A stretch of DNA of 64,000 bases from contig JAPDJI010000009.1 of the NCBI GenBank assembly GCA_029259155.1, forward strand, positions 1 through 64,000, in the 5' to 3' direction. Below, piece after piece: positions 7,026 to 45,691 of the stretch. The notes under the pieces were generated by a model. It was not told where the DNA came from, made no database searches, and was given only the letters and a program-made list of their open reading frames with translations. Each line of letters starts with the position of its first letter. Positions within the stretch are counted from its first letter, which is position 1. The translations under genes and the position numbers were made by a program. Origin of the DNA: Candidatus Methanomethylicia archaeon (GTDB lineage Archaea > Thermoproteota > Methanomethylicia > Nezhaarchaeales > B40-G2).

Positions 7026-7450
7026 GGGAGTTGCCCAAAGGAATGGAAAGGTTTGGGAAGGTAACCTATACGAGCGAGGCTAAAGTCTCCGACTTTGTCA
7101 AATACCTAGAGGAAGGTAAGGTAATGGCTACTCGCTGCAAGAAATGCGGCCGCCTATACTTTCCTCCAAGAGCAGACTGTCCTGAATGTTTCTCTGAGGA
7201 GTATGAGTGGGTTCCGTTGAGCGGGAAGTGTAAGTTGATAACGTATACAGTAGCGCATTTCGCCCCGACAGGCTTTGAGTCCGATGTGCCCTACGTGCTG
7301 GCCGTAGCTGAGTGCGAGGATGGTGTTAAGGTCTTTACGAGGGTTAGCAAGGACATCAGCGTCGATGAGCTTAAGCTTGGCATGGAGCTTAAGCTAGCGC
7401 CCATAAAGGTAAACGAAGATAAATATAGCTTCGAGCTGCAAAAACCATAA
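7022..7450 (+). CDS. DUF35 zinc-ribbon/OB-fold thiolase partner protein
   Basis: CKKCGRLYFPPRADCPEC followed by an OB fold; overlaps the thiolase stop. Confidence 0.93.
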   Translation: MRELPKGMERFGKVTYTSEAKVSDFVKYLEEGKVMATRCKKCGRLYFPPRADCPECFSEEYEWVPLSGKCKLITYTVAHFAPTGFESDVPYVLAVAECEDGVKVFTRVSKDISVDELKLGMELKLAPIKVNEDKYSFELQKP

Positions 7451-11777: not shown

Positions 11778-12193
11778 GCTTAGAACTTAGAGGAAGGGTG
11801 GTTTCTAAAGGAAGAGGAGTAGGGGAAGCTTTAGTGTCTAAGAAGCCTCTCTCCTTTTTCGGAGGAGTAAACCCTAAGACCGGGCTTGTTATAGAGGAAG
11901 GCCATTCATTAAAGGGTTACTCTGTGAAGGGTAAGGTACTCGTCCTCCCAAGAGGTAAGGGCTCCACGGTGGGTTCGTGGGTACTCTACGAGCTTTCTAT
12001 CAACGGCTTAGCGCCTAGCGCCATAATTAACCTAGAGGCTGACCCTATCGTTGCCGTTGGAGCTATTATAGCCGGTATACCTTTGGTGGACAAGCTTAAC
12101 GTGGATCCTTTCGAGGTGATCGAGAACGGGGATATGATTGAAGTTATGGCTGAGGGCAGGGTAGGGGTTGTGAGAGTGCATAAAGGGGGTTAG
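11765..12193 (+). CDS. Aconitase X small (swivel) subunit, DUF126
   Basis: SFFGGVNPKTG, GKVLVLPRGKGSTVGS, IVAVGAIIAGIP. Confidence 0.92.
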   Translation: MGLLSLELRGRVVSKGRGVGEALVSKKPLSFFGGVNPKTGLVIEEGHSLKGYSVKGKVLVLPRGKGSTVGSWVLYELSINGLAPSAIINLEADPIVAVGAIIAGIPLVDKLNVDPFEVIENGDMIEVMAEGRVGVVRVHKGG

Positions 12194-15755: not shown

Positions 15756-16244
15756 GTGGTTATGTTGAGGCTTAGTAGCGATGAAATACTGAAGTGGCTT
15801 CGTGAAGCCTATTTTGCTTTAGATGGCCTATGGTTTCTCGTCGTGGAGGAGGATAAAGGGCTTGAGGAAGCGATACGCCTCGACTTTAAGGTATGGGAGC
15901 GCCTCGCCTGGATAATGGCTAAGAGAGTTAAGCGCAGGTTCAATCTGCCCGGAGACATTAAATCCATTATGAACTCTCTGGACGTCTTCTTCAGCGTCGA
16001 GGGATGGACTGTAGATATTAAGGCTGAAGAGGGTTTCTTTAAGGTGGAGAGATGTCCATGGTGGGACTACCTCACCAAGGTAGGGAGACGGTATATCACG
16101 GAGAAGATATGTCCTATGGTATGTGAGCTGATATTTTCCTCGTGGGCTAAGGCCTTTAACCCTGATGTAGACATAGAGTTCCACTTCGCTCCTCCAAACT
16201 GTCAAGTTTTGTTCAAGGTAAGAGGTGACGAGGGTGGAGAATGA
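15756..16244 (+). CDS. DUF6125/V4R-like putative small-ligand-binding protein
   Basis: LDGLWFLVVEEDKGLEEAIRLDFKVW, CPWW, IC, terminal Cys. Confidence 0.65.
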   Translation: MVMLRLSSDEILKWLREAYFALDGLWFLVVEEDKGLEEAIRLDFKVWERLAWIMAKRVKRRFNLPGDIKSIMNSLDVFFSVEGWTVDIKAEEGFFKVERCPWWDYLTKVGRRYITEKICPMVCELIFSSWAKAFNPDVDIEFHFAPPNCQVLFKVRGDEGGE

Positions 16245-19962: not shown

Positions 19963-20496
19963 TCACTCCTCGATGTAGAGTTTTCTTAGACATATGCCGT
20001 CGCCTTTCGGTATGGCCTTTAGGGTCACTAGCTTCACCTTGGTGTTGAAAAGCGCGTTTATGTCCTCTATCACCGTCTGGAACCATTTATCGCAGCCTAG
20101 AAGGTCCTCTTCCATGGGAGCCCCGTAGCGTCTAGCGAATTCAGGCCAAGGACAGCTGTCCCAGCGTACGTATACTTCGTTAGGCTTCTCTCCCTTTATT
20201 ACTTTGGCGTCCTCTCCCATGGCCTGGGAGCTCATTACTATTAGCTTAGCTATGTCCTCCACGAAGGTAGGCTTTGACTTGTCGAGCGCTGGGAAGTAGC
20301 TCTTAGCGGTGTCGTGGCCTACTATTTCCCATGCTTTCAACACTAGGTCTAGGGGCTTGACGCCTTCGCGTGCAAAGGCCATGGCTGCTTCACGCCACTC
20401 ATACCACGTGGCCCGAACGATGGAACATAAGGTCTCAAACCTTGCTAGCAGCTTCCTAAATTCGGCCTCAACATCTACCTTGGCCATTTCACCCAC
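19963..20496 (-). CDS. Conserved small protein, ATC-hydrolase/V4R-like fold, co-transcribed with the flavoenzyme
   Basis: SSQAMGEDA, CPW, GCDKWF, GDGICLR Cys pattern. Confidence 0.6.
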   Translation of the reverse strand: MGEMAKVDVEAEFRKLLARFETLCSIVRATWYEWREAAMAFAREGVKPLDLVLKAWEIVGHDTAKSYFPALDKSKPTFVEDIAKLIVMSSQAMGEDAKVIKGEKPNEVYVRWDSCPWPEFARRYGAPMEEDLLGCDKWFQTVIEDINALFNTKVKLVTLKAIPKGDGICLRKLYIEE

Positions 20497-20499
20497 CTC

Positions 20500-22488
20500 C
20501 TACAACCTCATTCCTACTCGATAACCGTCATGAATTGCGTTGTGCATTCTGCGAGGCACTAGTGCATCGCCGATCACGTAGACCTCGGAGCACACAGCCT
20601 TAGCGGCCTCAGCGAGCTCGCTGACGGATTCACGCTCAGCGTAGACCACCGTGTCTGCAGCTATGGGTAGCCGTAGGTTGTAAGGTATGATCTTGATTAT
20701 TACCTCGTTCTCACCGATCTCTTCGATTGTGCTGTTCCTGTAGACCTTCACTCCTAGCTGGCCTAGCTTCATTATGTATCTCCACACGTAGGATGGGTTT
20801 ACGTCCCTACCGACCCTTCTATCTCGTGATACTAATGTGACTTTCTTGCCCTTATTGGCTAGATACAGCGCTGTGACGACGCCAGGGCCTCTACCGCCCC
20901 ATACAACCACTTTCTCACCGGTCTCTACCTTGCCCTCTAGGACGTCAGGAGCAGCTACTACGTTTGGCCTATCGACACCGGGAACCTTCTCAACTGTGAA
21001 GCGTGCACCCGTAGCTATTACTACGGCATCAGGCATCTCCTCCTCTATTAGCTGAGGTGTCACCTCGACGCCTAGATGGAAGATTACGCCTGCCTTCTTA
21101 CACTGAGTGACTTGGAACTCTATCATGCCGTAGAGCTCGTCTTCACCGAAGGGACCTTTCGAAGCATACCATACCTGGCCGCCTAGTATGTCGCGTTTAT
21201 CGTAGAGGTGTACTTCATGTCCCTTCTGAGCGGCGGCTGCTGCACACTCAAGCCCGGCTGGCCCTCCGCCTATCACCATTACCTTCTTCTTGGTCTCTGC
21301 TGGCTTGATCTGCCATTCAGGGTCCCATTCATGTCCGCAGAGCGGGTTGGTGGCGCAGGTCATAGGAGCGTCTCTGAAGAGCCTAGCTAGACATAGGTTG
21401 CAGGCTATGCAAGGCCTGATATCTTCAAGCCTGCCCTCCAGCGCCTTCTTGGGTAGGAGTGGGTCAGCTATCATTGGCCTGCACATCTCCCAGATGTCTA
21501 TGATGCCTTCGGCGATCGCCTTATCAGCCATTGCTGGCTTAAAGAGCCTGTAAGCCATGGATATAGGTACCTTGATGCCCGCCTCCTTAGCTCTCTTGGC
21601 GTTGTAGAGCCAGTACCCTTGAGGCACGTCTCTTGTTATGACCGGTACGGTTGACTCCTGCCAGCCCTGCGTGACGCTTATGCAATCGATCCCCGCCTTC
21701 TCGGCCATCTTATAGGTGACCATGCACTCCTCAGGCGTATTTCCTCCAACGTCGTCTAGGAGCTCCTCGGCGCATAGCCTTATTATGAGTGGTATATCTG
21801 GGCCTACAGCGTCGCGCACTGCTTCTATGACCTCGACCATGAACCTGCACCTGCCCTCGATGTCGCCTCCGTACTCGTCCTTGCGCCTGTTGGTGTACTT
21901 TGAGAGGAAGTTGGAGATCAGGTACCCTACTATGCCTGAGATCTCTACTATGTCGAAGCCTGCTTCAACTCCTCTCCTAGCTGCCTCGGCGTGTTGTTTT
22001 ATACATAGCTTAATGTCGTCCTTGGTCATCTCCACGACAGGCCTGAAGATTCTTAGCCTCTGTGGAATGGCTGAGGGACCGACACAGTAGGGTATCTCTA
22101 CGCCACCTACTCTGCCGCAGTGCATGAGCTGGATGTTAGCAATGGCTCCCTCTTCATGGATGGCGTCGGCTATCCTCTTGAGGCCAGGTATGAACTTATC
22201 GTCCCAGGCAGCGGCTTGGCCAACGTAGCCTTGCCCCTCCTTCTTGGGGTCCATGTAGACGCCCTGCATCGTGCATATTCCGCCTACTACGCCCTTCGCC
22301 CTCTCCCTCATGTAGGCTACGTCCCTGTCGGTTATGAAGCCGTCGTGGGTGTTGAAGTTGTCCTCGGTGGCAGCGTACTTTATCCTGTTGGGTACTGTTA
22401 GCTTACCGACTTTTATGGGCTTGAAGAGGTTTGGGAACATCTTGTAGCCAGGGTATTGCGTGTAGTCCCACTTCCCCACTTCCGGCAT
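20500..22488 (-). CDS. Old Yellow Enzyme/2,4-dienoyl-CoA reductase family FMN/FeS/FAD enzyme (cyclohexa-1,5-dienecarbonyl-CoA oxidase-like)
   Basis: QLMHCGR, EISGIVGYLISNFLS, NRRKDEYGG, CIACNLC-x11-C FeS motif, IGGGPAG, IGDA. Confidence 0.85.
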   Translation of the reverse strand: MPEVGKWDYTQYPGYKMFPNLFKPIKVGKLTVPNRIKYAATEDNFNTHDGFITDRDVAYMRERAKGVVGGICTMQGVYMDPKKEGQGYVGQAAAWDDKFIPGLKRIADAIHEEGAIANIQLMHCGRVGGVEIPYCVGPSAIPQRLRIFRPVVEMTKDDIKLCIKQHAEAARRGVEAGFDIVEISGIVGYLISNFLSKYTNRRKDEYGGDIEGRCRFMVEVIEAVRDAVGPDIPLIIRLCAEELLDDVGGNTPEECMVTYKMAEKAGIDCISVTQGWQESTVPVITRDVPQGYWLYNAKRAKEAGIKVPISMAYRLFKPAMADKAIAEGIIDIWEMCRPMIADPLLPKKALEGRLEDIRPCIACNLCLARLFRDAPMTCATNPLCGHEWDPEWQIKPAETKKKVMVIGGGPAGLECAAAAAQKGHEVHLYDKRDILGGQVWYASKGPFGEDELYGMIEFQVTQCKKAGVIFHLGVEVTPQLIEEEMPDAVVIATGARFTVEKVPGVDRPNVVAAPDVLEGKVETGEKVVVWGGRGPGVVTALYLANKGKKVTLVSRDRRVGRDVNPSYVWRYIMKLGQLGVKVYRNSTIEEIGENEVIIKIIPYNLRLPIAADTVVYAERESVSELAEAAKAVCSEVYVIGDALVPRRMHNAIHDGYRVGMRL

Positions 22489-22646
22489 TAACCTCCCTCC
22501 GAGTGGAAACCCTTTGCCGTATAAGTTTTAAATAGTTTATCCTCCCTCCTATGAACGCGTATTTTAAACTCCCCCCGCAATCCATAAATATGGGGGGTTC
22601 CTTCCTACAAGCTCCAAGCTTTATTAGTTTCCGCGAGGTCCTAGAT

Positions 22647-24017
22647 ATGCCTGGCTCCGTACTTGTGATAGGTGGCGGGATAGCTGGAATTGAAGCCTCC
22701 CTAAACTTAGCTAATTACGGCTTGGAGGTATACCTTGTGGACGACACCCCCAGCATAGGGGGGTTAATGGCGAGGCTGGATAAAACCTTCCCCACCAACG
22801 ACTGCTCCATCTGCATTGAAGCTCCAAAGATGTACGAGGTACAGCGCCACCCCAACATTAAGCTCCTCACCTACACGGAGGTTAGGAGGGTGGATAAGGT
22901 CGATGGACGTTTCAGGGTGAGGCTTGTTAAGAAGCCTAGATTTATAGATGAAGAGAAATGTAAAGGATGCGGTAAATGCGTTGAAGTTTGTCCTGTAAGC
23001 GTACCTGATGAACTGGACTGGAAGGTTGGAGGCAAGAGGAAGCTAATCTACATACCTTTCCCGCAGGCCGTGCCTAACGTCTACGTCATAGACCCTAGGT
23101 GTAGGTACGGTAAGATGAGGGATAAAGGAGCTTGCGTAGGCGGTTGTATTGTTGATTGTAGTCAGTGCCGTGAATGCCCTATAGCGCTTTGCGTCAAGGC
23201 CTGTAAAGAGGAGGGGGCTGACGCTGTTATGTTGTGGCAGAGGGAGAAGTTGATGGACGTGGTTGTAGATAGCATCGTGGTTGCTACAGGGCTAGAACCC
23301 ATGGAGCCTCCTGTAGGCACCTTTGGATATGGCGTATACCCGAACGTTCTGACACACATTCAGTATGAGAGGATGATGAACGCTGGTGGACCGACCATGG
23401 GGGAGATCCTTAGACCTTCTGACGGCAAACACCCCTCAAGGATTGCTTGGATTCAATGCGTATGTAGCCGCGTAGACCCGAAGGTTAAGCCTGGTGTACC
23501 GTACTGTAGCAAAGTCTGTTGCATGGTGGCCACCAAGCAAGCCATCATAACTAAGGAGCACGACCCCTCAATTGATGCCTACATCCTTTACATGGACCTT
23601 AGGACTTACGGCAAAGGTTTCCACGAGTTCTACATGAAGGCTAAGTCCATGGGGGTTAACTACGTGAAGGCGAGGCCTGCAGAGATCTACGAAGACCCAG
23701 CCACTGGAATGTTAAAGCTAACCTACGAGAATGTAGATAAGGGTTCAGTTGAGGAGCTCGACGTAGACATAGTAGTTTTATGCACTGCACTTGTACCTAG
23801 TAGCCGCAACGCAAGGTTGGCTAAGGTTCTTAGGCTTGAACTCGACGAGTTTGGCTTCATTAAAGAGAGGGATCCAGTGAAGGCTCCTCTCGAAACTACG
23901 GTCGATGGAATATACGTGTGCGGCGGGGCCACCGGCCCCATTGATATTTCTGAGTCGGTGGCTCAAGCCGCCGCTGCTAGCATGAAGGCTGCTTTGAGGG
24001 CGGTGAAGGCAAAATGA
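22647..24017 (+). CDS. hdrA: HdrA-like flavoprotein lacking the N-terminal FeS domain (QmoA-like) with a Cys-rich inserted ferredoxin
   Basis: VIGGGIAG, LDKTFPTNDCSIC, CKGCGKCVEVCP, YCSKVCC, GPIDISES; ATG at 22647 after GAGGT preferred over track start 22551. Confidence 0.9.
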   Translation: MPGSVLVIGGGIAGIEASLNLANYGLEVYLVDDTPSIGGLMARLDKTFPTNDCSICIEAPKMYEVQRHPNIKLLTYTEVRRVDKVDGRFRVRLVKKPRFIDEEKCKGCGKCVEVCPVSVPDELDWKVGGKRKLIYIPFPQAVPNVYVIDPRCRYGKMRDKGACVGGCIVDCSQCRECPIALCVKACKEEGADAVMLWQREKLMDVVVDSIVVATGLEPMEPPVGTFGYGVYPNVLTHIQYERMMNAGGPTMGEILRPSDGKHPSRIAWIQCVCSRVDPKVKPGVPYCSKVCCMVATKQAIITKEHDPSIDAYILYMDLRTYGKGFHEFYMKAKSMGVNYVKARPAEIYEDPATGMLKLTYENVDKGSVEELDVDIVVLCTALVPSSRNARLAKVLRLELDEFGFIKERDPVKAPLETTVDGIYVCGGATGPIDISESVAQAAAASMKAALRAVKAK

Positions 24018-26086
24018 GCGAGGAAATTAGGATAGGAGTATTCGTCTGCGACTGCGGCACCAACATAGGGGGCGTGATCAACGTCCCGGAGGTAGTGGAG
24101 TACGCTAAGACACTTGATGGAGTGGTCTTTGCTGATGAAGGTAAATGGATATGCTCAGTAGACTACCTGAACAAGATCAAGGAGAGCATCGCTCAACATA
24201 AACTTAACCGCGTAGTAGTAGCTTGCTGTACGCCTAGGACTCATGAGCCCATCTTCAAGTCAACGCTAAAAGAAGCTGGCCTAAACCCCTACCTCCTCGA
24301 GTTCGTCAGTATAAGGGAGCAGAGCTCATGGGTTCACCGTAGCGATCCTGCAGCGGCGACGGAGAAGGCTAAGGAACTCGTCAGAATGGGAGTGGCTAAA
24401 GCGAGGCTGCTGGAGCCAGCTGAAGAGATACGCCTACCTGTGGGCAAGGAGGCGTTGGTGATAGGCGGCGGCGTCACAGGTATGTCAGCGGCGTTAGCGC
24501 TGGCAGGCCAGGGCTTCAAGGTATGGATCGTGGAGCGCAGCGATAAGGTAGGAGGATTACTTAATAAATTAACAAGGATTGCTCCACTCGACATAGACGC
24601 TGAAAGCTTCCTCCAAGGCATCATCGAGCGCGTAAAGGCTGAGCCAAACATAGAGGTGTTGTTAAACGCTGAAGTTGAGTCTATTGAGGGTTACGTGGGC
24701 TTCTTCAAGGTTAAAGTAAAGCAGGGCGAGAACGCTCGTGAGCTATCGGTATCAACTATCATAGCTGCCACCGGGATGAATGAGATCGACCCCACAGGGC
24801 TATGTGGCTACGGTAAAAGCCCTAAGGTGATCACGCAGCTACAACTCGAAGAAAAACTGAAGCGCGGTGACCTAGGCGGCGCTAAGAAGGTCGTGATGAT
24901 CAACTGCGTGGGTTCAAGAAACGAGCAGAGAGGATGTTGCAATATAGGCTGCCTGACGTCCATAAAGAACGCCAAGCATATCAAGGAGCTAGATCCTCAA
25001 GCCGAGGTCTTTATTCTCCATCGAGGCCTCAACTTGAAGGGGATGGACGAGGTCTATCTGAAGGACGCCATGGAGAAGTACAGAATAAAATTCATTAAGT
25101 ACCCTGACGACAGGCTACCCGAGGTCAGCGAGGAGAAGGGCGGCTTAACGGTCAAAGTGTTCGATTTATTGCTAGGCGAGGAGGTTAAGCTATCCGCCGA
25201 CCTGGTAGTGCTCACGGTAGCTCTTCAAGGAGATGAAAGCGTAGAGCGCCTGAAGGGGTTACTGAAGGTCTCGGTCAACCCTGAAGGCTTCTACCAGGAA
25301 GCCCACATCAAGCTTAGGCCCTTGGACTTCAGCACCGACGGCGTCTACCTATGCGGCGCTGCTAGGTCACCTAAGGGGGTTAGGGAGTCTATGGAGGAGG
25401 CCATGGGAGCAGCGATGAGGGCCTCCATACCCATGGCTAGGGGCTACGTGGAGAGCGAGGGCATAGTGGCCGTGGTCGACGAGGAGCAATGTGTAGGCTG
25501 CGGCCTCTGCACCAAGGTTTGCGCCTACAGCGCTATAAGATTGAAGGAGGTTGAAGGAGGGAAACGTAAGGCTGAAGTGATCAAGGCCATATGCAAGGGG
25601 TGCGGCACGTGTGCAGCTGAATGCCCAAAGGACGCCATTAACATCATACACTACACCGACCAACAGATCTTGGCTCAGGTAGAGGCGGCTCTAGCTGATA
25701 AGCCAAGCGAGAAGATAATAGCCTTCTGTTGCCATTGGTGCGCGCTCGGCGCCGTAGACGTGGCTGGTGTTAGCAGGTTCGAGTATCCTCCTAATATTAG
25801 AATTATAAGGGTCATGTGTTCGGGTAGAATAGATACGAGGTTTGTTGAAAGAGCCTTTGAGCTAGGAGCGGCCGGTGTATTGGTTGCTGGATGCGAGTTC
25901 CCTACATGCCACTATATATCAGGCAACTACAAGTGCAAGGAAAGAATAGAGAAGCTGAGGCCTAAGCTGGCTCAGAAAGGCTACGATCCAGAGAAGCTCT
26001 GGACGGTGTGGCTGTCGGCGGCTGATGGACCCAAGTTCGTGGCCACGGTGAAGAACATGGTGGAGAAGTTGGGCTTAAGGAGGTGA
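24014..26086 (+). CDS. hdrA: HdrA-MvhD fusion (QmoB/BamE-like)
   Basis: IGVFVCDCGTNI, ACCTPRTHE, GGGVTG, EAHIKLRP, two CxxCxxC ferredoxin motifs, then MvhD AFCCHWC...RVMCSGR...GC..CHY. Confidence 0.92.
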   Translation: MSEEIRIGVFVCDCGTNIGGVINVPEVVEYAKTLDGVVFADEGKWICSVDYLNKIKESIAQHKLNRVVVACCTPRTHEPIFKSTLKEAGLNPYLLEFVSIREQSSWVHRSDPAAATEKAKELVRMGVAKARLLEPAEEIRLPVGKEALVIGGGVTGMSAALALAGQGFKVWIVERSDKVGGLLNKLTRIAPLDIDAESFLQGIIERVKAEPNIEVLLNAEVESIEGYVGFFKVKVKQGENARELSVSTIIAATGMNEIDPTGLCGYGKSPKVITQLQLEEKLKRGDLGGAKKVVMINCVGSRNEQRGCCNIGCLTSIKNAKHIKELDPQAEVFILHRGLNLKGMDEVYLKDAMEKYRIKFIKYPDDRLPEVSEEKGGLTVKVFDLLLGEEVKLSADLVVLTVALQGDESVERLKGLLKVSVNPEGFYQEAHIKLRPLDFSTDGVYLCGAARSPKGVRESMEEAMGAAMRASIPMARGYVESEGIVAVVDEEQCVGCGLCTKVCAYSAIRLKEVEGGKRKAEVIKAICKGCGTCAAECPKDAINIIHYTDQQILAQVEAALADKPSEKIIAFCCHWCALGAVDVAGVSRFEYPPNIRIIRVMCSGRIDTRFVERAFELGAAGVLVAGCEFPTCHYISGNYKCKERIEKLRPKLAQKGYDPEKLWTVWLSAADGPKFVATVKNMVEKLGLRR

Positions 26087-26092
26087 GGCTAC

Positions 26093-27319
26093 ATGGATGA
26101 CGTGATTAGTAGCTTATCGGTATGTATGCAATGTGGAGCCTGTGTAGGTAGTTGCCCTGTAACAGGGCTCAACAACTTTAATGTTAGGAGACTAGCTAGG
26201 AGAGCATACTTTGGTTGGACAGGGCAGGATGTGTTAAAGAACGATGTGTGGCTATGCCTACTCTGCGCCCGATGCCACGAGAACTGTCCGCAGGGCATTA
26301 ACCTACCCGAGGTTATGGTTACGTTGAGGCAGCAGGCGGTGAAGGTTGGAGCGACTCCTAGAATGATCACTTTAATGAAGAGTAACCTCTCCAAGTACGG
26401 CAACCCTGTGGGCGTAGAGGCCAAGGAGCTCATAAGCCTGGTTAACGAAGTTAACTTACCCAAGAGCGGAGAGAGGTTATTCTACGCTGGCTTCTACCTG
26501 TTGGCGGACCATATAGAGTCTATGGTGAAATCGATGCTACGTGCAGGAGTAAAAGTCGATAAAGTGGCTACAGCCGCAGCCATACTTCAGCGTGTAGGCT
26601 TGGGAGGCTTACTTAAGGCAGCCATGAGAGGGGTGGGCCAGAGCTACCGTGAAACCCTAAAGAAGTACCTGTTGCTGCTACCCAAGTTAGGTGTGGAGGT
26701 CTCTTACTTATACGAGGAGGAGCCATGGGTAGGTGCAGAGCTACACACCTACGGTCTCCTCGACGAGTTCGCTGAGCACGCTAAGAGGGTCTCCTCTTTC
26801 CTAAAGGAGAGAGGTGTCAAGGAAATAATCACGCCTGATCCTATCTCAGCGATGGCCTTCAAGAAGCTCTACCCTGAGTTCGTCGATGGCTTTTCCGTGG
26901 AGGTTAAGACTTTCATAGAGGTGGTCGCTGAGAAGGCTTCCAAGGCCTCCTTGGAGCTAAAGAACCCCGTCGGAGCCAAGGCCGTCTTCCACGATCCCTG
27001 CATGCTGTCCCGCTACCTTAAGGTGATCGATGAACCAAGGGTCGCGCTGTCCTCCGTGCCCAGCTTAAACCTGGTGGAGCCCATAAGGAATAAGCAGTAC
27101 ACCGTGTGTTGCGGGGCAGGCGGCTTAGAGGTGATCAACCCCTCCTTGGCGAGGGAGGTATCTGTCAAATCCGTCCAGAACCTCCTATCAGCCAGCCCTG
27201 ACCTGGTAGTGTCAGCCTGTCCAATGTGCACCATGATGCTGAAGCTGGGCGTGGAGAAGCTGGGTGCCAAGGTGGAGGTCATAGACGTGGGCGACCTACT
27301 CTGGAACTCCATTGCTTAG
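26093..27319 (+). CDS. HdrD-like FeS oxidoreductase (2x[4Fe-4S], one degenerate and one intact CCG domain)
   Basis: CMQCGACVGSCP, CLLCARCHENCP; first CCG lacks Cys (YAGFY, EPWVG, TPDP); second intact (HDPC, CCGAGG, ACPMC). Confidence 0.85.
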   Translation: MDDVISSLSVCMQCGACVGSCPVTGLNNFNVRRLARRAYFGWTGQDVLKNDVWLCLLCARCHENCPQGINLPEVMVTLRQQAVKVGATPRMITLMKSNLSKYGNPVGVEAKELISLVNEVNLPKSGERLFYAGFYLLADHIESMVKSMLRAGVKVDKVATAAAILQRVGLGGLLKAAMRGVGQSYRETLKKYLLLLPKLGVEVSYLYEEEPWVGAELHTYGLLDEFAEHAKRVSSFLKERGVKEIITPDPISAMAFKKLYPEFVDGFSVEVKTFIEVVAEKASKASLELKNPVGAKAVFHDPCMLSRYLKVIDEPRVALSSVPSLNLVEPIRNKQYTVCCGAGGLEVINPSLAREVSVKSVQNLLSASPDLVVSACPMCTMMLKLGVEKLGAKVEVIDVGDLLWNSIA

Positions 27320-27337
27320 GTGTAGAGGGACTGAGCG

Positions 27338-28078
27338 TTGCAATGGATGACCGTTTTAACCGCGGTAGCCCACACAGCTCTTCTAATCTTTGTAATCGGT
27401 GTTATCTATAGGCTGGCTCGATGGTTCAGGGCGTCCTCGTCAACTAACTTCAGGGCTCAAGGCCTTAGCTTTGGTGAATGGGTTAAGGTAATCTCCAACG
27501 TAATCTTGGACCTAGTATTTATGAGGAAGGTTTTCAGGTCCGACGAGGTTTTCGGGACAGTGGTGTGGTTAATGCACATGGTGGTCCTGGTACTGCTAGT
27601 GGGTCATTTAAGAGCCTTCGGGGTATGGTCGGCTGAAGCGATAGGCGAGGGGCCTCGCTGGCTATTTCTAGGGCTGATTCCTACAGCCCTAGGCTGGCTT
27701 CTCTTCTTCCTCCTCCTCTTCCTCTTCGTTAGGAGAGTGAGGCTAACCCCAGCTAGAAGCATGCTAACCCTCGGTGACGTGGTGCTCTATGCGCTGCTGT
27801 TGTCAGGGGTGCTGTGCGGCAACTTAATGAGGCTACTACCTACTTCCCACGAGGCTTTTCAATGGCGGATCTTTCCATGGTTAACCCTTTCACTGGAACA
27901 CGCACCCAACCTGGCTGCTTTCTCGCTCCACGTAGTGCTACTTTCAGCCCTCCTCGCCTACCTACCCTTCAGCCCTCTAGTACACATCTTCTCAGGCATA
28001 GTATCCTCCATTCTCCACTACAAGTGGAGGCTTCAAGTGGCTAAGTACTCTCTTGGAGGCGTTAGCCTTGAAGAGTGA
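27338..28078 (+). CDS. Diheme cytochrome b membrane anchor (NarI/HdrE/DsrM family)
   Basis: About five TM helices; His pairs MH-x9-GH and LH-x17-VH (YLPFSPLVH). Confidence 0.85.
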   Translation: MQWMTVLTAVAHTALLIFVIGVIYRLARWFRASSSTNFRAQGLSFGEWVKVISNVILDLVFMRKVFRSDEVFGTVVWLMHMVVLVLLVGHLRAFGVWSAEAIGEGPRWLFLGLIPTALGWLLFFLLLFLFVRRVRLTPARSMLTLGDVVLYALLLSGVLCGNLMRLLPTSHEAFQWRIFPWLTLSLEHAPNLAAFSLHVVLLSALLAYLPFSPLVHIFSGIVSSILHYKWRLQVAKYSLGGVSLEE

Positions 28079-29240
28079 AGCTTTACCTAAACGCTACCAC
28101 GTCCTTAACCTCGACACCTGCATGAGGTGTACTCTATGCGCTAACATCTGCCCCACCTACATAGCTTCAGGGGACCTCAAAGTAGCTCCAGCCTCCAGAA
28201 TTAAGCTCATCAAGAGCTTTATGGAGGGTAAAGGAGAGAACCTAACGCGTGAGCTATGTACCGAGGCGTTTAGGTGTACTTTATGTGGAAGGTGCATGGA
28301 GTCTTGCCCCTTCTCCATTAGGACCGTCGACCTATGGTACCTGCTACGATACTATACGTGTAAGGCTGGCAAACGCCCTGAAACCTTGGACAGCTTCGAG
28401 GAAAGATTGTTGTCTAATAGAAACCCCTACGGAGCAGACTCGTCTCTAAGGACCTACTGGGCAGAGATGTTGGGCATCAGCGACCCGTCAGGGTTAACGC
28501 CCAGGAAGGCTAAGGTGGTCCTCTTCATGGGTTGCACTCCAGCCTATAGATCAGTGGCTCAGGATACCCTAGGAGCAGCGGTAGCCCTGCTTAATAAGCT
28601 GAAGGAGAGTTGGACCACGCTGGGCAATGATGAGTGGTGCTGCGGCTGCCCGCTGTTAATGCTTGGAAACCGTGAGGCAGCCGCTGAGTTTGCCAGGCAT
28701 AACGTCGAAGCGGTGAAGGCTGTCGATGCTTCAGTGTTAGTGACCATATGTGCCACGTGCTATAAGATGTTCAAGCTCGAGTATGAGGAATTACTTGGTG
28801 GACCCCTACCCTTCAAGGTATTACACCTAACCGAGCTGTTAAGCAAGTACGTGACCGAGCTAAAATTAGAGTTACCCAATAAGCTTGACGCTAGGGTAGC
28901 CTATCACGACCCATGCGATTTAGCTAGAATGTCATGGGTCATAGAGGCACCCCGCATATTGATTAGGGAAGCAGCAAGGGAGCTTGTTGAGTTGCCGGGT
29001 AACAGGCTAGACACGTCCTGTTGCGGAGGAGGAGGGCTTCTTCAAGCTGTAGACAACGAGTTGAGGTTAAAAATAGCCAGGAAAAGAGTTCGTGAGGCTG
29101 TGGAGGCCAAAGCAGACATCTTGGCTTCAGCTTGTCCAGCCTGTAAATCCTCTTTCGTGGAGGCTGTCAGGGAAGAAGGTGTAGATATAGAGGTGATGGA
29201 CGTGGTTGAGCTGGTTGCTAAGGCGGCTGGGCTGTACTGA
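28053..29240 (+). CDS. HdrD-like FeS oxidoreductase (2x[4Fe-4S] + two CCG domains)
   Basis: CMRCTLCANICP, CTLCGRCMESCP, FMGC, CCGCP, CATC, YHDPC, CCGGGG, ACPAC. Confidence 0.9.
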   Translation: MEALALKSEALPKRYHVLNLDTCMRCTLCANICPTYIASGDLKVAPASRIKLIKSFMEGKGENLTRELCTEAFRCTLCGRCMESCPFSIRTVDLWYLLRYYTCKAGKRPETLDSFEERLLSNRNPYGADSSLRTYWAEMLGISDPSGLTPRKAKVVLFMGCTPAYRSVAQDTLGAAVALLNKLKESWTTLGNDEWCCGCPLLMLGNREAAAEFARHNVEAVKAVDASVLVTICATCYKMFKLEYEELLGGPLPFKVLHLTELLSKYVTELKLELPNKLDARVAYHDPCDLARMSWVIEAPRILIREAARELVELPGNRLDTSCCGGGGLLQAVDNELRLKIARKRVREAVEAKADILASACPACKSSFVEAVREEGVDIEVMDVVELVAKAAGLY

Positions 29241-29910
29241 TTGTTACCTGGTAGGCTTCACCAGGCCTCAACACCACTACTTTAACCTCCGGCGCCACTT
29301 TCTCCATTTCTTTAAGGAACTCGTCTGGCTTCTGTACGAGGACGGGGAAGGTAGCATAGTGCATTGGTATCACCACCTTAGGTTTAATTAAACTAGCAGC
29401 CACCGCGGCTTCCCTAGGACCCATGGTGTAGTACCCTCCAATGGGGAGAAGGGCTACGTCAGGCCTATAGAGCTCACCTATAAGCTTCATGTCTCCGAAT
29501 AGCGAGGTGTCGCCAGCGTGGTAGACTGTGACATTGTCAACGCTTACTAGGCAGCCAGCTGGGAATCCACGGCTACATGTATGAAAAGCCTGAACCAGCG
29601 CTACCTTAATCCCGTCGATGTCGACGTAGGAGCCCATGTTTATGGCTACGGTCTCCACGCCCTCTAAGCTGAGGGCTAGCTCAGGTAATGCCACTATTTT
29701 TGCTCCTGTGCGCTTGGCTATGTCCACCGCGTCTCCTAGGTGGTCAAAATGGTCGTGGGTGACGATCACTAGCTTAGCCTCCCTAACCTCCTCTGGCTTA
29801 ATGGGAGCTAGGGGGTTGTTGTTCAGGAAGGGGTCTATCAACACAACTCCTTTTGAAGTATGGAGTTCAAAGGCAGCGTGGCTCAGCCACTTAATCCTCA
29901 AGCCAATCAC
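29218..29910 (-). CDS. UPF0173 metal-dependent hydrolase (MBL fold)
   Basis: IDPFL, THDHFDHLGD, YHAGDT, LPIGG, IPMHY. Confidence 0.92.
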   Translation of the reverse strand: MIGLRIKWLSHAAFELHTSKGVVLIDPFLNNNPLAPIKPEEVREAKLVIVTHDHFDHLGDAVDIAKRTGAKIVALPELALSLEGVETVAINMGSYVDIDGIKVALVQAFHTCSRGFPAGCLVSVDNVTVYHAGDTSLFGDMKLIGELYRPDVALLPIGGYYTMGPREAAVAASLIKPKVVIPMHYATFPVLVQKPDEFLKEMEKVAPEVKVVVLRPGEAYQVTISTAQPP

Positions 29911-29978
29911 CTCGCTAGTACATTCTCAGCCACTTTTTTAAGCATCCTTCAATTTAATTAAAATAAGGTGCTAATTTA

Positions 29979-31907
29979 TTGAGCATTGAGCCTGACGTTG
30001 TAGAGGACCTTAAACGCTTTCTTTGCACTCAGTCCCTCTTCGGTTTTCTAAGCGACGAGGATCTTGAACGTGCTGTACGTAGTTCTTCGCTCAGATACTA
30101 CGCCAAGGGCTTCAAGATAGTGGATAGAGGGTCTCCTAAGGGCCTCTACGTAGTTTACCGCGGAGCGGTGAGGATCGAGGCAGAGGAGGGAGGGATCCAT
30201 GATTTTTTAGAGGAGGGAGACATCTTCGGCATCGACCTATTGCTTAAAGGGGTTCCTTTAACCACGGTTGAGGCTGTTGAGGATACTATCTGCTTAATCA
30301 TAGAAGAGAAAGTTTTCTGGGACCTTTACCGTAAATACCCTTCCTTCGCCAAGATCATGGATCTACTCCTAAAAGGTGAAACTCTATGGGCTTATGAACA
30401 TTCTGTCCCTCTACCCATGATGCAGTATTCCCCCCTCCTATACGAACGGAGGGTAATAGAGGTTATCAAGAAAGAGCCTGTTACGTGCTACCTGGGCACG
30501 ACCGTTAAGGAAGCAGCAAAGTTGATGAGTGAAAACCATGTAAGTTCCATCATAGTGGTTGATGAAAAGGGTAGGCCTTTAGGCATAGTAACCGACGCGG
30601 ATCTAAGGAGAGGGTTAGTTTCTGCTGAACCCATTATAGACAAGCCTGTAGACCTCTTCATGAGCAGGCCTGTGTTTAAGGTGAGCGGAGACGCTTTATG
30701 CTGGGAAGCCTTAGCCTTGATGGCTGAGAAAGGGGTCAAGTACCTTCCGGTCGTAGTTGAGGAGAAGGTAGTCGGCGTAGTAACGCTATGGGACCTCACC
30801 TCAGCCCAGCTTCAAACCCCTGTTATACTCGTTAGGGAGGTTGAAGATGCACAGACGCTGGAGGAACTTAGGGGTGTGATGTGGAGGGTGGTGGATGCTG
30901 TCAAGGCCATGTACAGGGAAGGGATTAATGTAGTTCATGTGGCTAAAATGCTCTCCAGCATTTACGATAGACTTGTGATGAAGGCGCTGCACATCGCGGA
31001 GGATGAACTTTCAAGAGAACTATCGATGTCTCCGCCCGTTAAATACGCTTGGATTGCCTTAGGCAGTGAAGGAAGGCGGGAACAGCTGCTGAAGACCGAT
31101 CAGGACAGCGCCCTCATCTTTGAGGACCCTCCTTCAGGGTCTGAGGAGGAAGTTTCCGAGTACTTTAAACAATTAGCGGTTAGAGCCGCCACTAAGCTAG
31201 CCCAATTAGGTTTTCCTAAGTGTCCTCATGGCTTCACAGCTGATAACCCCTTATGGAACAAGTCTCTGAGAGACTGGACTAGTACGTTCGAGGACTGGGT
31301 ACTCAAGCTTAACGCTAAGCCGGAGAACGTGATGTTCACCTACATGTTCTCGGATGCTCGACTAGTCTATGGCTCACACAAGCTGGTGGAGGAGTTTAAG
31401 AAGAGGCTGATAGCTTTGATTAACAAGGATAAAAGACGTTTGGCTCCCTTAGCCAGGAACGTACTGGTTGAATCCCCTCCCATAGACTTCCTGAAGCGTT
31501 TCGTGATTGAAAGGGATGGCACCAAAGAGCGTAGAGTCGACATAAAGGTGAGGGGCCTCACCATAATCATGACCGCGGTCAAGATTTTAGCTATCGACCG
31601 CGGCATAGATGTCACCAACACTATCGATAGGCTTAGAGCCCTAGCCAACCTTGGAGCAATATCTCAAGACCTAGAGAAGGAGGCTGCCTATGCCTTTAAC
31701 TTTCTCTTAGGGCTAAGATTGAGAGAGCAGCTTAGAGGTTTAGAGATGGATAAAAAACTTTCACTTGAAGAGATTCCTTCGGGGCGCTACGTATCGTTAA
31801 CTGAGCTATCAAAGCATGAGAGAACCTTCCTAAAGGAGGCTTTCAAGGTGGTCAGGAAGCTTCAAGACCTTGTAGCCTATAGGTTCTTGGGATCTCCCTT
31901 CCTATGA
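29979..31907 (+). CDS. cNMP-binding + CBS pair + DUF294 GlnD/GlnE-like nucleotidyltransferase
   Basis: N-terminal LYVVYRGAV..LEEGDIFG (cNMP); CBS GIVTDADL; NTase ALGSEGRREQLLKTDQDSAL; C-terminal DIKVRGL..NTIDRL. Confidence 0.92.
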   Translation: MSIEPDVVEDLKRFLCTQSLFGFLSDEDLERAVRSSSLRYYAKGFKIVDRGSPKGLYVVYRGAVRIEAEEGGIHDFLEEGDIFGIDLLLKGVPLTTVEAVEDTICLIIEEKVFWDLYRKYPSFAKIMDLLLKGETLWAYEHSVPLPMMQYSPLLYERRVIEVIKKEPVTCYLGTTVKEAAKLMSENHVSSIIVVDEKGRPLGIVTDADLRRGLVSAEPIIDKPVDLFMSRPVFKVSGDALCWEALALMAEKGVKYLPVVVEEKVVGVVTLWDLTSAQLQTPVILVREVEDAQTLEELRGVMWRVVDAVKAMYREGINVVHVAKMLSSIYDRLVMKALHIAEDELSRELSMSPPVKYAWIALGSEGRREQLLKTDQDSALIFEDPPSGSEEEVSEYFKQLAVRAATKLAQLGFPKCPHGFTADNPLWNKSLRDWTSTFEDWVLKLNAKPENVMFTYMFSDARLVYGSHKLVEEFKKRLIALINKDKRRLAPLARNVLVESPPIDFLKRFVIERDGTKERRVDIKVRGLTIIMTAVKILAIDRGIDVTNTIDRLRALANLGAISQDLEKEAAYAFNFLLGLRLREQLRGLEMDKKLSLEEIPSGRYVSLTELSKHERTFLKEAFKVVRKLQDLVAYRFLGSPFL

Positions 31908-31917
31908 GGTAGGGAGG

Positions 31918-32631
31918 ATGCCGTTCAGGCTCTTCAAGAAACATGGCGATAATTTAAACCGGCCTTTCGACGAGGTTCGCTTCGTCTCTATAGACCTTGA
32001 GACTTCAGGCCTGGACCCTAAAAGGAACGGGATACTTGCCATAGGTGCGGTGGTGGTGAAGGAGAGGGAAATTAAGCTTTCAGAGGTATTTCACGTACTC
32101 GTGAAGCCTGAAGGTATCTTCGACGAGAAAAGCTCGTTCGTGCATGGGATAACCCCAGCCGATGTTGAGGATAAGCCTAGCTTCAAGGAGGTGGCGCCAA
32201 GCCTCTTATCCTTCATCGATGGGGGCGTGCTCGTAGGCTACAATATCGGCTTCGACCTAAGCTTCCTCAACGAGTTTCTTAAAAGACATGGAATGCCAAC
32301 CTTGAGGGGGGGAGCCTTGGACTTACTTCCCCTCACATACGGAGTTATGATTAAGCTGGGCATGGACCCCGTTGTGTTGAAGATGGACTACCAGGCTTTG
32401 ATGGGTAAAATGGGGCTTGATACCTTAGCCGACATACTATCCATGCCCATCTTGCGTAGGCATAGTTCGATCGGTGACGCCTTTACGGCTGCTTTCATAC
32501 TTCTTAAGCTCCTCTTTCTTGCTAAGTTAGCTGGGTGTAAGAGCTTAGGAGACCTCTTCGAGCTGGTCCGTGAAGGGGAGCGCCACGCTAAAAGGATTGA
32601 TGTGCTTAGCGCAATAGCCTGCGGCTTTTGA
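31918..32631 (+). CDS. DEDDh 3'-5' exonuclease (DnaQ/PolC-epsilon-like)
   Basis: SIDLETSGLD, HGIT, GYNIGFD, RHSSIGDA. Confidence 0.92.
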   Translation: MPFRLFKKHGDNLNRPFDEVRFVSIDLETSGLDPKRNGILAIGAVVVKEREIKLSEVFHVLVKPEGIFDEKSSFVHGITPADVEDKPSFKEVAPSLLSFIDGGVLVGYNIGFDLSFLNEFLKRHGMPTLRGGALDLLPLTYGVMIKLGMDPVVLKMDYQALMGKMGLDTLADILSMPILRRHSSIGDAFTAAFILLKLLFLAKLAGCKSLGDLFELVREGERHAKRIDVLSAIACGF

Positions 32632-34024
32632 CGCTGCTTAACCCTACGAAAAGCACTGTTGACACTATCAGCCCCCAAACCCCTGGCCACTGTCCTAAAG
32701 GCCTCATCCCTAATAAGTGGAGGCAGATAGCTGTTCCAGAGCCTATAACTATGCTTAGACCTGCACTTAGAGAATTACCTCTCTTAATGGTTAAGGCGTC
32801 TATCAACGCTGGAGCTGCACTAACTAGGCAAGCTGAGGAGGCTACTGAGAGCTCAACGATAAGCCCAGGCCTGAACAGTGAGAAGATGAAAGAGGCGCAT
32901 GCCACGATCACGATCGTCGTCTTCCCGACGAGGAGCTCAAGTTCTTCTCGCCTCTTCTTAAAGGTCTTGCCGTAGAGGTCTCGCGCTGTCATGGAGCTTA
33001 ACGTAAGCAGGATGGAGTCCACCGTGGTTATGGCGGCTGAAACAATACCTACGAACACTAGTAAAGCGAGTGGAACTGGAACCAGCGCTAAAAGCGAGGG
33101 CATTGCTTGATCAGGCTTCATCAACCCTGGAACTATGAGCCTGACAGCTAGGCCTATCAATGTAACTATCACGGTATATATTAAGCCGAAGACGGCGTGG
33201 CCAAGCACCATCGATTTAAACTCCGACCTACCTCTAGGCACGAACATTCTTTGCGACACTTGAGGGTTGGTTAAGGCGAAGAAAAACCATGGCAGGGTTA
33301 AGCCAAGAAACTTTTCAAAAGGCCACCCTGACCCTGGCACCCTAAGGAGTTCAGGATGCTCAGAGGCCAGCATCTCCGTAAACCGGGTGAAGTCACCGAA
33401 CCAGACGTAGAAAACGAAGAAGAGAAGGATCAGGGAGGTAACTATCATGATTAACGCTTGGAGAGCATCGGTCCAAGCCACAGACCTTAACCCAGCCCAC
33501 AGCGACCATGCTATAGCCACGGAGGCTGCTATGAGAGCGCCAACCTCGAAAGGCACCTCTCCTCCTGACATGCCTTCCACTAGGTAGCCAACCCCCATCA
33601 TCTGCACCGACATGTAGGGGACCAGCACAGCTAGACAGACCACCGTGAACAATGCTCCTATCAAACTATTTCCGTAAACATCGCTAAGCAACTCCGCTGG
33701 CGTCACGTATCCTCGATTCCTTCCTACCTCCCACATTCTTGGACCAAGTAGAACTAAGATCATCAAGGCCCCTACAAGGTATACAAGCTCGAAACCTACA
33801 GTGCCTACACCGAAAGCGTAAGTGAAGCCTACCAGCCCCACCATCATGAAGGCGCTGTAGGTGGTAGCTGCATAGGTTAATGCTGATATTATCCCTCCAA
33901 GAGCCCTATTAGCTAAGAAATAATCTACGAAGCCATGTCCCATGGACCTTCTAGCGTACTGAGAAAGCAGGCAACCAATAACTATGTAGGCTACCAGAGC
34001 TAAGACTACGTAAAAGCTTTCCAC
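32606..34024 (-). CDS. Sodium:solute symporter (SSS family) #1
   Basis: DYFLANRALG, ATTYSAF, GLRSVAWTDALQ, SAAITTVDS. Confidence 0.93.
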   Translation of the reverse strand: MESFYVVLALVAYIVIGCLLSQYARRSMGHGFVDYFLANRALGGIISALTYAATTYSAFMMVGLVGFTYAFGVGTVGFELVYLVGALMILVLLGPRMWEVGRNRGYVTPAELLSDVYGNSLIGALFTVVCLAVLVPYMSVQMMGVGYLVEGMSGGEVPFEVGALIAASVAIAWSLWAGLRSVAWTDALQALIMIVTSLILLFFVFYVWFGDFTRFTEMLASEHPELLRVPGSGWPFEKFLGLTLPWFFFALTNPQVSQRMFVPRGRSEFKSMVLGHAVFGLIYTVIVTLIGLAVRLIVPGLMKPDQAMPSLLALVPVPLALLVFVGIVSAAITTVDSILLTLSSMTARDLYGKTFKKRREELELLVGKTTIVIVACASFIFSLFRPGLIVELSVASSACLVSAAPALIDALTIKRGNSLSAGLSIVIGSGTAICLHLLGMRPLGQWPGVWGLIVSTVLFVGLSSVKSRRLLR

Positions 34025-45688: not shown

Positions 45689-45691
45689 CTC

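Follow-up and report, generated by a model that had tools for sequence, protein, structure and literature searches.

A five-gene operon pairing a two-part HdrA with a cytochrome b/HdrD module in a Methanomethylicia archaeon: a candidate quinone-coupled electron bifurcase

The first 64,000 nt of contig JAPDJI010000009.1 (assembly GCA_029259155.1, Candidatus Methanomethylicia archaeon), here called the window, carry five genes of the Hdr kind (g1 to g5) at 22647–29240 on the + strand. Gene g1 (22647–24017) encodes an HdrA core flavoprotein of the 'HdrA6' class, and g2 (24014–26086) an HdrA with a C-terminal ferredoxin and a fused MvhD. These are followed by g3 (26093–27319), an HdrC+HdrB fusion with the fold of HdrD, BamD and the soluble part of EtfD; g4 (27338–28078), a membrane cytochrome b of the NarI/HdrE/DsrM type; and g5 (28053–29240), a complete HdrD-type protein and the predicted soluble partner of g4. 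Genes g1 and g2 overlap by 4 nt, g2 and g3 are separated by 5 nt (26087–26092) and g3 and g4 by 18 nt, and the open reading frames (ORFs) of g4 and g5 overlap by 26 nt; this spacing is operon-like. Strong domain matches (Pfam, NCBIfam) were found for all five genes, so that the tight packing, the domain make-up and the flavin, iron-sulfur and cytochrome b character described in an initial annotation of this DNA are borne out. Of the 69 ORFs of at least 110 aa in the window, 55 were scanned for protein families, and statements below about genes missing from the window refer to these; the other 14 are shadow ORFs overlapping larger genes, and an open-ended ORF at 2–679.

The g1 ORF opens at 22551, but the ATG at 22647 is preceded by GAGGT and gives a protein of 456 aa (homologues, 445–495 aa). 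Upstream, on the − strand, lies a gene for a three-domain old yellow enzyme (OYE) of the 2-naphthoyl-CoA reductase (NCR) family (20500–22488), which the initial annotation did not mention. The divergent region shared by this gene and g1 (22489–22646) spans 158 nt, or 206 nt if the OYE begins at Met17 (22440), probably its true start. It is A/T-rich, carries TTTAAATA-like boxes and a TATA-like box upstream of g1, and is a candidate promoter region.

Gene g1 aligns to residues 146–567 of the solved HdrA 5odc_A, so it consists of the FAD core and the inserted ferredoxin, with no C-terminal ferredoxin and, as had been proposed, no N-terminal domain. It has the thioredoxin-reductase fold with FAD, an HA4-type cluster and the inserted ferredoxin, and keeps Cys194/Cys197 within NDCSIC, in the place of 5odc_A residues 192–197 (counted along the alignment); Cys56 of g1 is the equivalent of Cys197. 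Gene g2 matches HdrA in two blocks (residues 3–236 to HdrA 2–235, and 242–562 to HdrA 317–652), from which it follows that the inserted ferredoxin is missing; with the MvhD match at residues 566–686, these blocks confirm the predicted HdrA-MvhD fusion. The g2 protein thus carries an N-domain cluster, an FAD core, a C-terminal 2x[4Fe-4S] ferredoxin and MvhD, and its best NCBIfam model is HdrA2 (678 bits, cut-off 1100). It has no Cys194/Cys197, and LDIDAESF stands at the NDCSIC place.

The N-domain and Cys197 are therefore complementary across two adjacent HdrA genes, as in the HdrA5/6 type, and on their sequences g1 and g2 complement each other as the two halves of an asymmetric HdrA dimer, a type published as 'HdrA6/HdrA5'. 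Chadwick et al. (PMC9012536) describe Cys197 of one HdrA as a ligand of the N-domain cluster of the other, and report the same complementary loss in tandem HdrA5/6 and HdrA12/13 of anaerobic methanotrophic archaea (ANME), for which heterodimers were proposed. The N- and C-truncated form is named 'HdrA6' in a paper reporting 171 such sequences from mcr-bearing archaea (PMC12054007). With the N-domain cluster in g2, its completing Cys197 in g1 and the sole inserted ferredoxin in g1, the pair has just one way out for low-potential electrons. Its one C-terminal ferredoxin and its one MvhD, the mid-potential port, are both in g2.

A check of HdrA bifurcation residues had been suggested in the initial annotation. 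Both g1 and g2 retain a Lys in line with HdrA index 409, and a Glu in line with index 356. This Lys presumably contacts flavin N5. Because both FADs keep it, the bifurcating one is indistinguishable by sequence; by analogy with BamE it would be that of g1, the unit with the Cys-x-x-Cys pair. In BamE of class II benzoyl-CoA reductase (BCRII), the equivalent residue is described as Lys280, with Gln at the non-bifurcating FAD (bioRxiv 10.64898/2026.04.10.717634).

An extra Cys-rich stretch in g1 had been pointed out in the initial annotation. The stretch is real, with eight Cys (C152–C186) after the first ferredoxin motif. Of 7999 scored candidates, 7872 match g1 at E <= 1e-60, and in the best 120 (445–495 aa, 66–83% identical, window protein included) all eight Cys are invariant (120/120), as are all other cluster Cys, the NDCSIC pair and the HA4-type Cys included. 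The stretch is a hallmark of a very large family and not peculiar to this window. The conserved cluster-binding Cys of g1 number about 17 (4 + 8 in the ferredoxin insert, 4 of HA4 type, and the NDCSIC pair). Eight Cys where HdrA has four suggest that the insert carries a third cluster, giving three putative clusters in all. Named members of the family come from metagenome-assembled genomes (MAGs) of Nezhaarchaeota, Methanomassiliicoccales and Deltaproteobacteria, and a tblastn search of g1 against plasmids gave one distant match (Ilyobacter, 41%).

Gene g3 has two cubane motifs (C11–C21 and C55–C65) and the five Cys of one CCG domain (C303, C339, C340, C376 and C379; domain at 298–384). There is no Cys between residues 66 and 302, and PWVG replaces the CCG kept by its relatives P0008, P0010 and P0011; for these reasons the first CCG domain is considered dead, in agreement with the initial description of an HdrD-like protein with one inactive domain. 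Whereas HdrB has two CCG domains, each with a non-cubane cluster, g3 has the Cys for one only. The AlphaFold2 model is folded throughout (pLDDT 85.8, pTM 0.88), the Cys-less first CCG domain included, and its best fold match is EtfD of M. smegmatis (9ojn, TMq 0.74), followed by LutA, HdrB and HdrC. The qmoC model NF038018 reaches 47.7 bits (cut-off 300) over residues 7–104 only, the HdrC-like N-terminus, and none of the equivalog models for HdrA, HdrB and HdrC reaches its cut-off. The g3 family has few members (29 clusters at E <= 1e-3, 16 of them close), and matches to g3 in the ESM Atlas are only to generic 'Fe-S oxidoreductase' clusters.

The cluster order given for EtfD is D1 (first CCG), D2 (second CCG), the cubanes and the haem; FadF and DgcB are described as lacking the D1 cysteines and presumably take electrons at D2 (PMC13083937). 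By its Cys pattern g3 appears to be of the FadF/DgcB kind, keeping the second CCG cluster, which is the cubane-proximal one in EtfD. As only this cluster remains, HdrB-like disulfide cleavage by g3 is unlikely. This points to an electron wire and not a disulfide reductase, and g3 looks like the FadF/DgcB and BamD type of wire.

Gene g4 matches Nitrate_red_gam weakly in Pfam (35.5 bits) and has NarI-like hydrophobic segments. Each of the 18 aligned relatives keeps four His (H80, H90, H198 and H216); these suggest two haems, in line with the diheme cytochrome b of the initial annotation. The g4 model has a pLDDT of 89.3, and NarI and EtfD make up its top nine Foldseek matches, none at E <= 0.001; the fold is assigned mainly from Pfam and the His pattern. 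Relatives are few: among 1.84 billion representatives there are 92 at E <= 1e-3, 24 at 1e-10 and 2 at 1e-30. Six of the 92 were scanned, and three (P0277, P0279 and P0346) are fusions of a NarI-type cytochrome with Fer4 and CCG domains. Two of the fused proteins, P0277 and P0279, are 34% identical to g5 and 24.5% to g3. In a quick IQ-TREE reconstruction of 38 rows, g5 groups with the cytochrome-fused relatives (SH-aLRT 91, not starred), and g3 falls in a separate clade of 15 rows (SH-aLRT 96).

As initially annotated, g5 is a full HdrD-like protein: it has two cubane motifs, and neither of its two CCG domains lacks any of the five Cys. Among solved structures it is closest to EtfD (9ojn, 123 bits). 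A NarI-type cytochrome b with two His pairs (H80/H90 and H198/H216) beside an HdrD-type protein is the composition of HdrED and DsrMK, but the equivalog scores are far below cut-off (DsrM 22.6 against 300, DsrK 85 against 400), and no dsr or mcr gene was found in the window. There is no qmoC match on g4. Because relatives are fused and g5 is nearest to EtfD, g4 and g5 are considered to be a split quinone module of the EtfD/'HdrF'/HdrED type, as judged from sequence.

Related loci were sought with a 9-row g3 alignment in a collection of genomes from 185,579 species, which gave 51 pattern matches, four of them confirmed as loci (L001 to L004). Only one other genome of this collection, a Nitrososphaerota-labelled MAG (L001), has the same gene order, with g2-g3-g4-g5 at 85, 75, 61 and 81% identity; its contig begins inside g2, so the upstream side lies outside the contig. 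Four genes downstream of the operon are common to the window (29218–34024) and L001 (5250–10152), and encode a metallo-beta-lactamase-fold hydrolase, a cNMP/CBS/DUF294 nucleotidyltransferase, a DEDD exonuclease and a sodium:solute symporter. The retained g2-g5 order and downstream genes argue that these are real, conserved genes. In the window the block continues with two more symporters and one MFS transporter.

The second locus (L002, Dehalococcoidia) has orthologues of g1 (47% identity), g2 (50%) and g3, without g4 or g5. Of the five-gene order for which a synteny search had been suggested, g2-g5 is kept in L001 only, and the L002 module lacks the membrane pair. The L002 g1/g2 pair shows the same complementarity of N-domain and Cys197, the g2 pattern being present in L001 also, and the 8-Cys pattern is missing from the L002 g1 orthologue. 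In L003 (Dehalococcoidia), an ORF running beyond the contig end (5806–7956, −) has its first ~186 residues 52% identical to the ferredoxin+MvhD region of g2, followed by a Fer4_20 + Pyr_redox_2 (GltD/NfnB-like) module; this gene adjoins a g3-like gene and an aldehyde:ferredoxin oxidoreductase (AOR). The fusion suggests that in relatives the MvhD port works at the NAD(P)H level. A small protein with Cys-x2-Cys pairs and no Pfam match is encoded between the g3-like and HdrA/MvhD genes in both L002 (10206–10670, −) and L003 (5141–5779, −), and the two copies are 93% identical. These small ORFs were considered as a possible cytochrome and ruled out, being soluble, with Cys-x2-Cys pairs and no hydrophobic segments. 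The fourth locus (L004, 1866–4531, +) encodes a g3-like protein that lacks the N-terminal ferredoxin domain. A GlcD-like FAD-linked oxidase comes next, with a separate small ferredoxin of two clusters, and the layout is similar to that of glycolate or lactate dehydrogenase.

The divergent OYE has an FMN barrel, a 4-Cys linker, an FAD domain and a degenerate second nucleotide domain. Its best solved relative is NCR (6qkg_A), matched at full length with 530 bits, against 287 bits for the E. coli dienoyl-CoA reductase FadH. The protein has the marks of the NCR family (three domains, the 4-Cys linker, and Tyr197, Tyr82 and Tyr320), and keeps NCR residues Y82, Y197, Y320, T280 and G282. The linker residues C360, C363 and C366 are each shared by at least 119 of 120 family members. 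The NCR-specific residues W459, H284, N247, H123 and R155/Y156 are absent: W459 is replaced by E with an adjacent invariant L, H284 by Q, N247 by C and R155/Y156 by I/F, and H123 lies in a deleted loop. The family is invariant for Q277, C239, E451 and L452 where NCR has H284, N247 and W459. With these residues lost, the substrate is probably not naphthoyl-CoA.

NAD(P)H is reported not to serve as donor for NCR (PMC6502838). In the second-domain nucleotide motif of the OYE family the middle (second) Gly is R or K in 117 of 120 members, which argues, by inference, against NAD(P)H use. The family is large (2985 of 7999 scored candidates at E <= 1e-80) and is 64–93% identical across entries labelled Thermoprotei, Nezhaarchaeales, Thermoplasmata and Dehalococcoidia. 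Two NCR-family OYEs also lie within ~6 kb of the L002 g1-g3 module (scoring 340 and 234 bits with NCR but 200 and 156 with FadH). The OYE is a candidate low-potential acceptor for the operon, and only a lead. Its presence next door, with beta-oxidation, CoA-ligase and CoA-transferase genes elsewhere in the window, fits the CoA-thioester context proposed initially; a B12 mutase gene is also present. A small ATC_hydrolase/DUF6125-like gene (19963–20496, −; 27.8 bits, just under cut-off) lies 3 nt past the OYE gene, and its paralogue at 15756–16244 adjoins a 4HBT thioesterase.

The closest working analogue of the operon appears to be BamDEF of BCRII together with the ETF:menaquinone oxidoreductase of G. 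metallireducens, where ETF is an electron-transferring flavoprotein; this comparison is made with the descriptions in the preprint (bioRxiv 10.64898/2026.04.10.717634), with no Bam sequences compared. In that account an MvhD adaptor (BamF) feeds a double-HdrA protein, BamE, with one bifurcating FAD. The low-potential electron leaves via an inserted ferredoxin to the ring-reducing enzyme, and the high-potential electron passes from the HdrD-like BamD to ETF, a membrane oxidoreductase and menaquinone. The complex is cytoplasmic, the step from BamD to the membrane being made by soluble ETF.

As far as BamDEF is described there, it and the operon both combine two HdrA-like units that make up only one complete path of bifurcation, and both have MvhD as the input adaptor. 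In both, the low-potential exit is an inserted ferredoxin, and the high-potential exit is an HdrD-like subunit whose distal CCG cluster is altered. The low-potential exit of BamDEF leads to a CoA-thioester reductase and the final high-potential sink is menaquinone, and the operon is likened to it in both respects. The differences from the described system lie in the arrangement. The two HdrA units are separate genes and not one fused chain as in BamE; MvhD is fused to g2 and has Cys where BamF has selenocysteine; and g3 is without any distal cluster, unlike BamD. A membrane quinone module is in the same operon, with no ETF nearby. There is no BamGHI-like input, and the operon has neither BamBC- nor BamGHI-like genes next to it; its neighbouring reductase is an OYE and not the tungsten enzyme BamBC, an AOR with a Fer4_11 protein lying ~28 kb downstream.

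ANME tandem HdrA5/HdrA6 (and HdrA12/13), as described in PMC9012536, likewise have the N-domain in one HdrA only and Cys197 only in the other, sometimes with HdrD-like genes. Those clusters are described as soluble and linked to FdhAB or FrhB-like proteins, whereas the operon has a cytochrome b/HdrD pair and an OYE neighbour; the heterodimer is a proposal in either case. EtfD, also called EMO or 'HdrF' (9OJN, PMC13083937; HdrF, PMC2702500), is described as delivering electrons to menaquinone by way of two CCG domains, two cubanes and a NarI-like membrane domain, and g4 and g5 together have the same parts. EtfD is one polypeptide whereas g4 and g5 are two genes, with fused relatives in existence and no etfAB in the window; EtfD is described with one haem (His78/His241; PMC13083937) against the four conserved His of g4, and g5, unlike EtfD, keeps the CC doublet in both CCG domains. 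The HdrABC-MvhAGD and HdrA2B2C2 complexes of methanogens share the FAD core, cluster ligands and MvhD with the operon. Their four-domain HdrA is homodimeric, HdrB and HdrC are separate with both CCG clusters live, and electrons enter from a hydrogenase or F420H2; the operon is built differently, and all methanogen models are below cut-off on its genes.

With about even confidence, the five genes are taken to encode one HdrA-type flavin-based bifurcating, and reversibly confurcating, machine wired to the membrane. The operon is read as having three ports, a mid-potential one at MvhD (g2), a low-potential one at the g1 insert, and a high-potential one from g3 through g5 and g4 to quinone. A two-electron donor at the NAD(P)H or F420H2 level, encoded outside the operon, would dock at MvhD and reduce the bifurcating FAD. 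The high-potential electron would pass from the HA4-type cluster to g3, g5, the g4 haems and quinone. The low-potential electron would pass through the g2 N-domain cluster, completed by the g1 Cys, to the g1 insert and on to ferredoxin or a partner enzyme, for which the divergent NCR-family OYE would be the best candidate. In the reverse direction, quinol and reduced ferredoxin would together reduce a mid-potential carrier. The quinone-coupled reading is favoured because the operon has BCRII's kinds of parts with a membrane oxidoreductase built in and no ETF. The anatomy of domains and ligands, the fusions and the synteny are shown by the data; we infer the direction, the donor, the g3-g5 contact, the quinone and the OYE link. 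The initial proposal of bifurcation or confurcation linking the quinone pool, a disulfide and ferredoxin stands in part: quinone and a ferredoxin-level carrier are plausible partners, but the disulfide leg is doubtful, as g3 has lost one CCG cluster. That annotation as a whole is partly supported, and a better frame is an HdrA5/6-type heterodimer with a BamD-like connector and a split EtfD/HdrF-like quinone module.

Several observations weigh against this reading. There is no ETF gene in the window to bridge g3 and g5, and their direct contact is presumed; a prediction of the g3-g5 complex gave no answer (score 0.00, mark 0.32) and is evidence neither way. A donor module for the MvhD port was looked for across the 64 kb, and no hydrogenase, formate dehydrogenase, NuoF/HydB-like, GltD-like or FrhB-like gene was seen, nor were quinone synthesis genes seen in the window. 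The Lys kept at both FADs does not single out a bifurcating one. The absence of g4 and g5 from L002 means that the soluble part can work without the membrane part. With regard to the partner enzyme, the window OYE is without W459, H284, N247, H123, R155 and Y156 of NCR, the two OYEs of L002 share no more than 36% and 32% identity with it and so are not its orthologues, and the OYE and g1 families are far larger than those of g3 and g4, so that the OYE cannot generally depend on the five-gene form.

In the main rival reading, which is somewhat unlikely, one transcript serves two enzymes: g1-g3 would form a soluble bifurcase and g4-g5 a membrane disulfide reductase of the HdrED/DsrMK type, with a diffusible carrier between them. 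That carrier might be a thiol/disulfide pair, a protein like DsrC/TusE, or an ETF whose genes lie elsewhere. The freestanding g1-g3 set of L002 speaks for it, as do the full five-Cys pattern of both g5 CCG domains, which is that of the disulfide-reducing HdrB and HdrD, and the precedent of a cytoplasmic BCRII complex reaching the membrane by soluble ETF, as the preprint describes it. Yet no carrier gene was found in the operon or among the scanned ORFs, the lone CCG cluster of g3 is easier to reconcile with passing electrons to another protein than with disulfide chemistry, and the genes are tightly spaced with the g2-g5 order kept in L001. If the operon served a methane- or alkane-metabolising archaeon as a reductase of CoM-S-S-CoB-type heterodisulfide, g4/g5 would be HdrED and g1-g3 a soluble Hdr regenerating reduced ferredoxin. 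Among named proteins, those closest to g1 and the OYE are from MAGs of Nezhaarchaeota/Nezhaarchaeales and of Methanomassiliicoccales or Thermoplasmata, the HdrA6 class is reported as common in mcr-bearing archaea (the 171 sequences of PMC12054007), and the window has an F420-type Mer-like enzyme (166 bits, below cut-off). This proposal is nonetheless improbable: no mcr, mtr or methanogenesis marker was found within the 64 kb, Deltaproteobacteria-labelled proteins of the g1 class occur at 66–68% identity and g1-g3 orthologues in Dehalococcoidia, the Hdr and Dsr equivalog models all score far below cut-off, and g3 is without one of the two HdrB clusters.

The initial annotation had labelled the complex a Qmo/HdrDE-like hybrid. 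QmoABC couples a cytochrome b to a pair of HdrA-like flavoproteins, of which one lacks the N-domain and the other carries MvhD, and confurcation has been proposed for it; its flavoprotein QmoA is not known to carry Fe-S clusters. The operon shares the flavoprotein pair and the cytochrome b (Qmo features are compared by description, with no Qmo sequences compared), and g2 has the QmoB-like order of N-domain, FAD, ferredoxin and MvhD. Together with the DsrMK-like composition of g4/g5, this would suit a sulfur module passing menaquinol electrons to APS reductase or DsrC. Such a role is very improbable, and the Qmo half of the label is not supported. With its ~17 cluster Cys and inserted ferredoxin, g1 differs from QmoA. 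QmoC fuses an HdrC-like domain to the cytochrome, whereas here these domains are in separate genes and the HdrC-like one is fused to an HdrB-like one (g3). There is an extra HdrD (g5), and qmoC, like DsrM and DsrK, stays far below cut-off by the scores given above. No sat, aprAB, dsrABC or dsrJOP gene was found in the window, and the same scan gave no apr, dsr, mcr, mvhAG, flx, ETF, GltD-like or NuoF-like family; the initial statement that no aprAB, dsr, mcr, mvhAG or flx genes are adjacent is therefore correct.

A more specific form of the quinone-coupled bifurcase, in which the operon is the electron-donor system for NCR-family (type III) CoA-thioester reductases and the three-cluster insert feeds electrons of ~−500 mV directly to the OYE FAD domain, is unlikely. 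If true, it would mean ATP-independent reduction of resonance-stabilised or aromatic acyl-CoAs in archaea and Dehalococcoidia. Were the OYE the low-potential acceptor, this would bear on a question in the NCR literature, the in vivo reductant of NCR-family enzymes.

To our knowledge, HdrA-type bifurcation is known in detail only for the methanogen Hdr complexes. Bifurcation by BCRII is the subject of the 2026 preprint, according to which high-potential electrons reach menaquinone via a soluble ETF. With the HdrA pair, the BamD-like connector and the membrane quinone module side by side, the operon would, to judge from sequence and gene order, offer a compact example of Hdr bifurcation coupled to quinone. 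Such a system would parallel FixABCX on the Hdr side, and it would belong to a lineage of archaea not yet in culture. Its elements have precedents in print (the HdrA5/6 idea, BamDEF and EtfD), and the five-gene combination is the new variant. A two-part HdrA with an iron-sulfur connector and a cytochrome b quinone module is an unusual, rare combination, the g3 and g4 families being tiny. No description of the five-gene set or of an HdrA-OYE link was found in the literature searched, subscription journals and supplements lying outside it.

The gene content marks the window as archaeal. An aconitase X pair (large and small subunits, 10560–12193, +) and a thiolase with a zinc-ribbon/OB-fold (DUF35-type) partner (5859–7450, +), which we take to be marks of the archaeal mevalonate pathway, accord with this, as does the TATA-like box upstream of g1. 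The nearest named homologues are Thermoprotei and Nezhaarchaeota/Nezhaarchaeales MAG proteins. No tRNA gene was found in the window, and the lineage is read here from the names of these homologues. The closest match of a UbiA-family gene (3534–4403, +) is haem o synthase, at 187 bits against a cut-off of 210. An F420-type luciferase-like oxidoreductase (8832–9899, −) is nearest to Mer (cut-off 349 for the 166 bits given above); these two genes hint at haem modification and F420 use in this organism.

Some 27–28 kb downstream of the operon are a stand-alone HdrB-like protein with two CCG domains (56133–57005, −; 273 bits, cut-off 345) and the pair formed by the Fer4_11 protein (57451–57963, +) and the AOR-family enzyme (57960–59975, +; 274 bits, cut-off 868). 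The pair is reminiscent of BamC/BamB, a likeness by gene type with no sequence comparison behind it. Between these genes and the operon lies a hydantoinase A/B pair (43934–47758, −), nearest to caprolactamase and acetophenone carboxylase subunits, all below cut-off, with a cohesin-domain protein (42264–43352, −) close to it.

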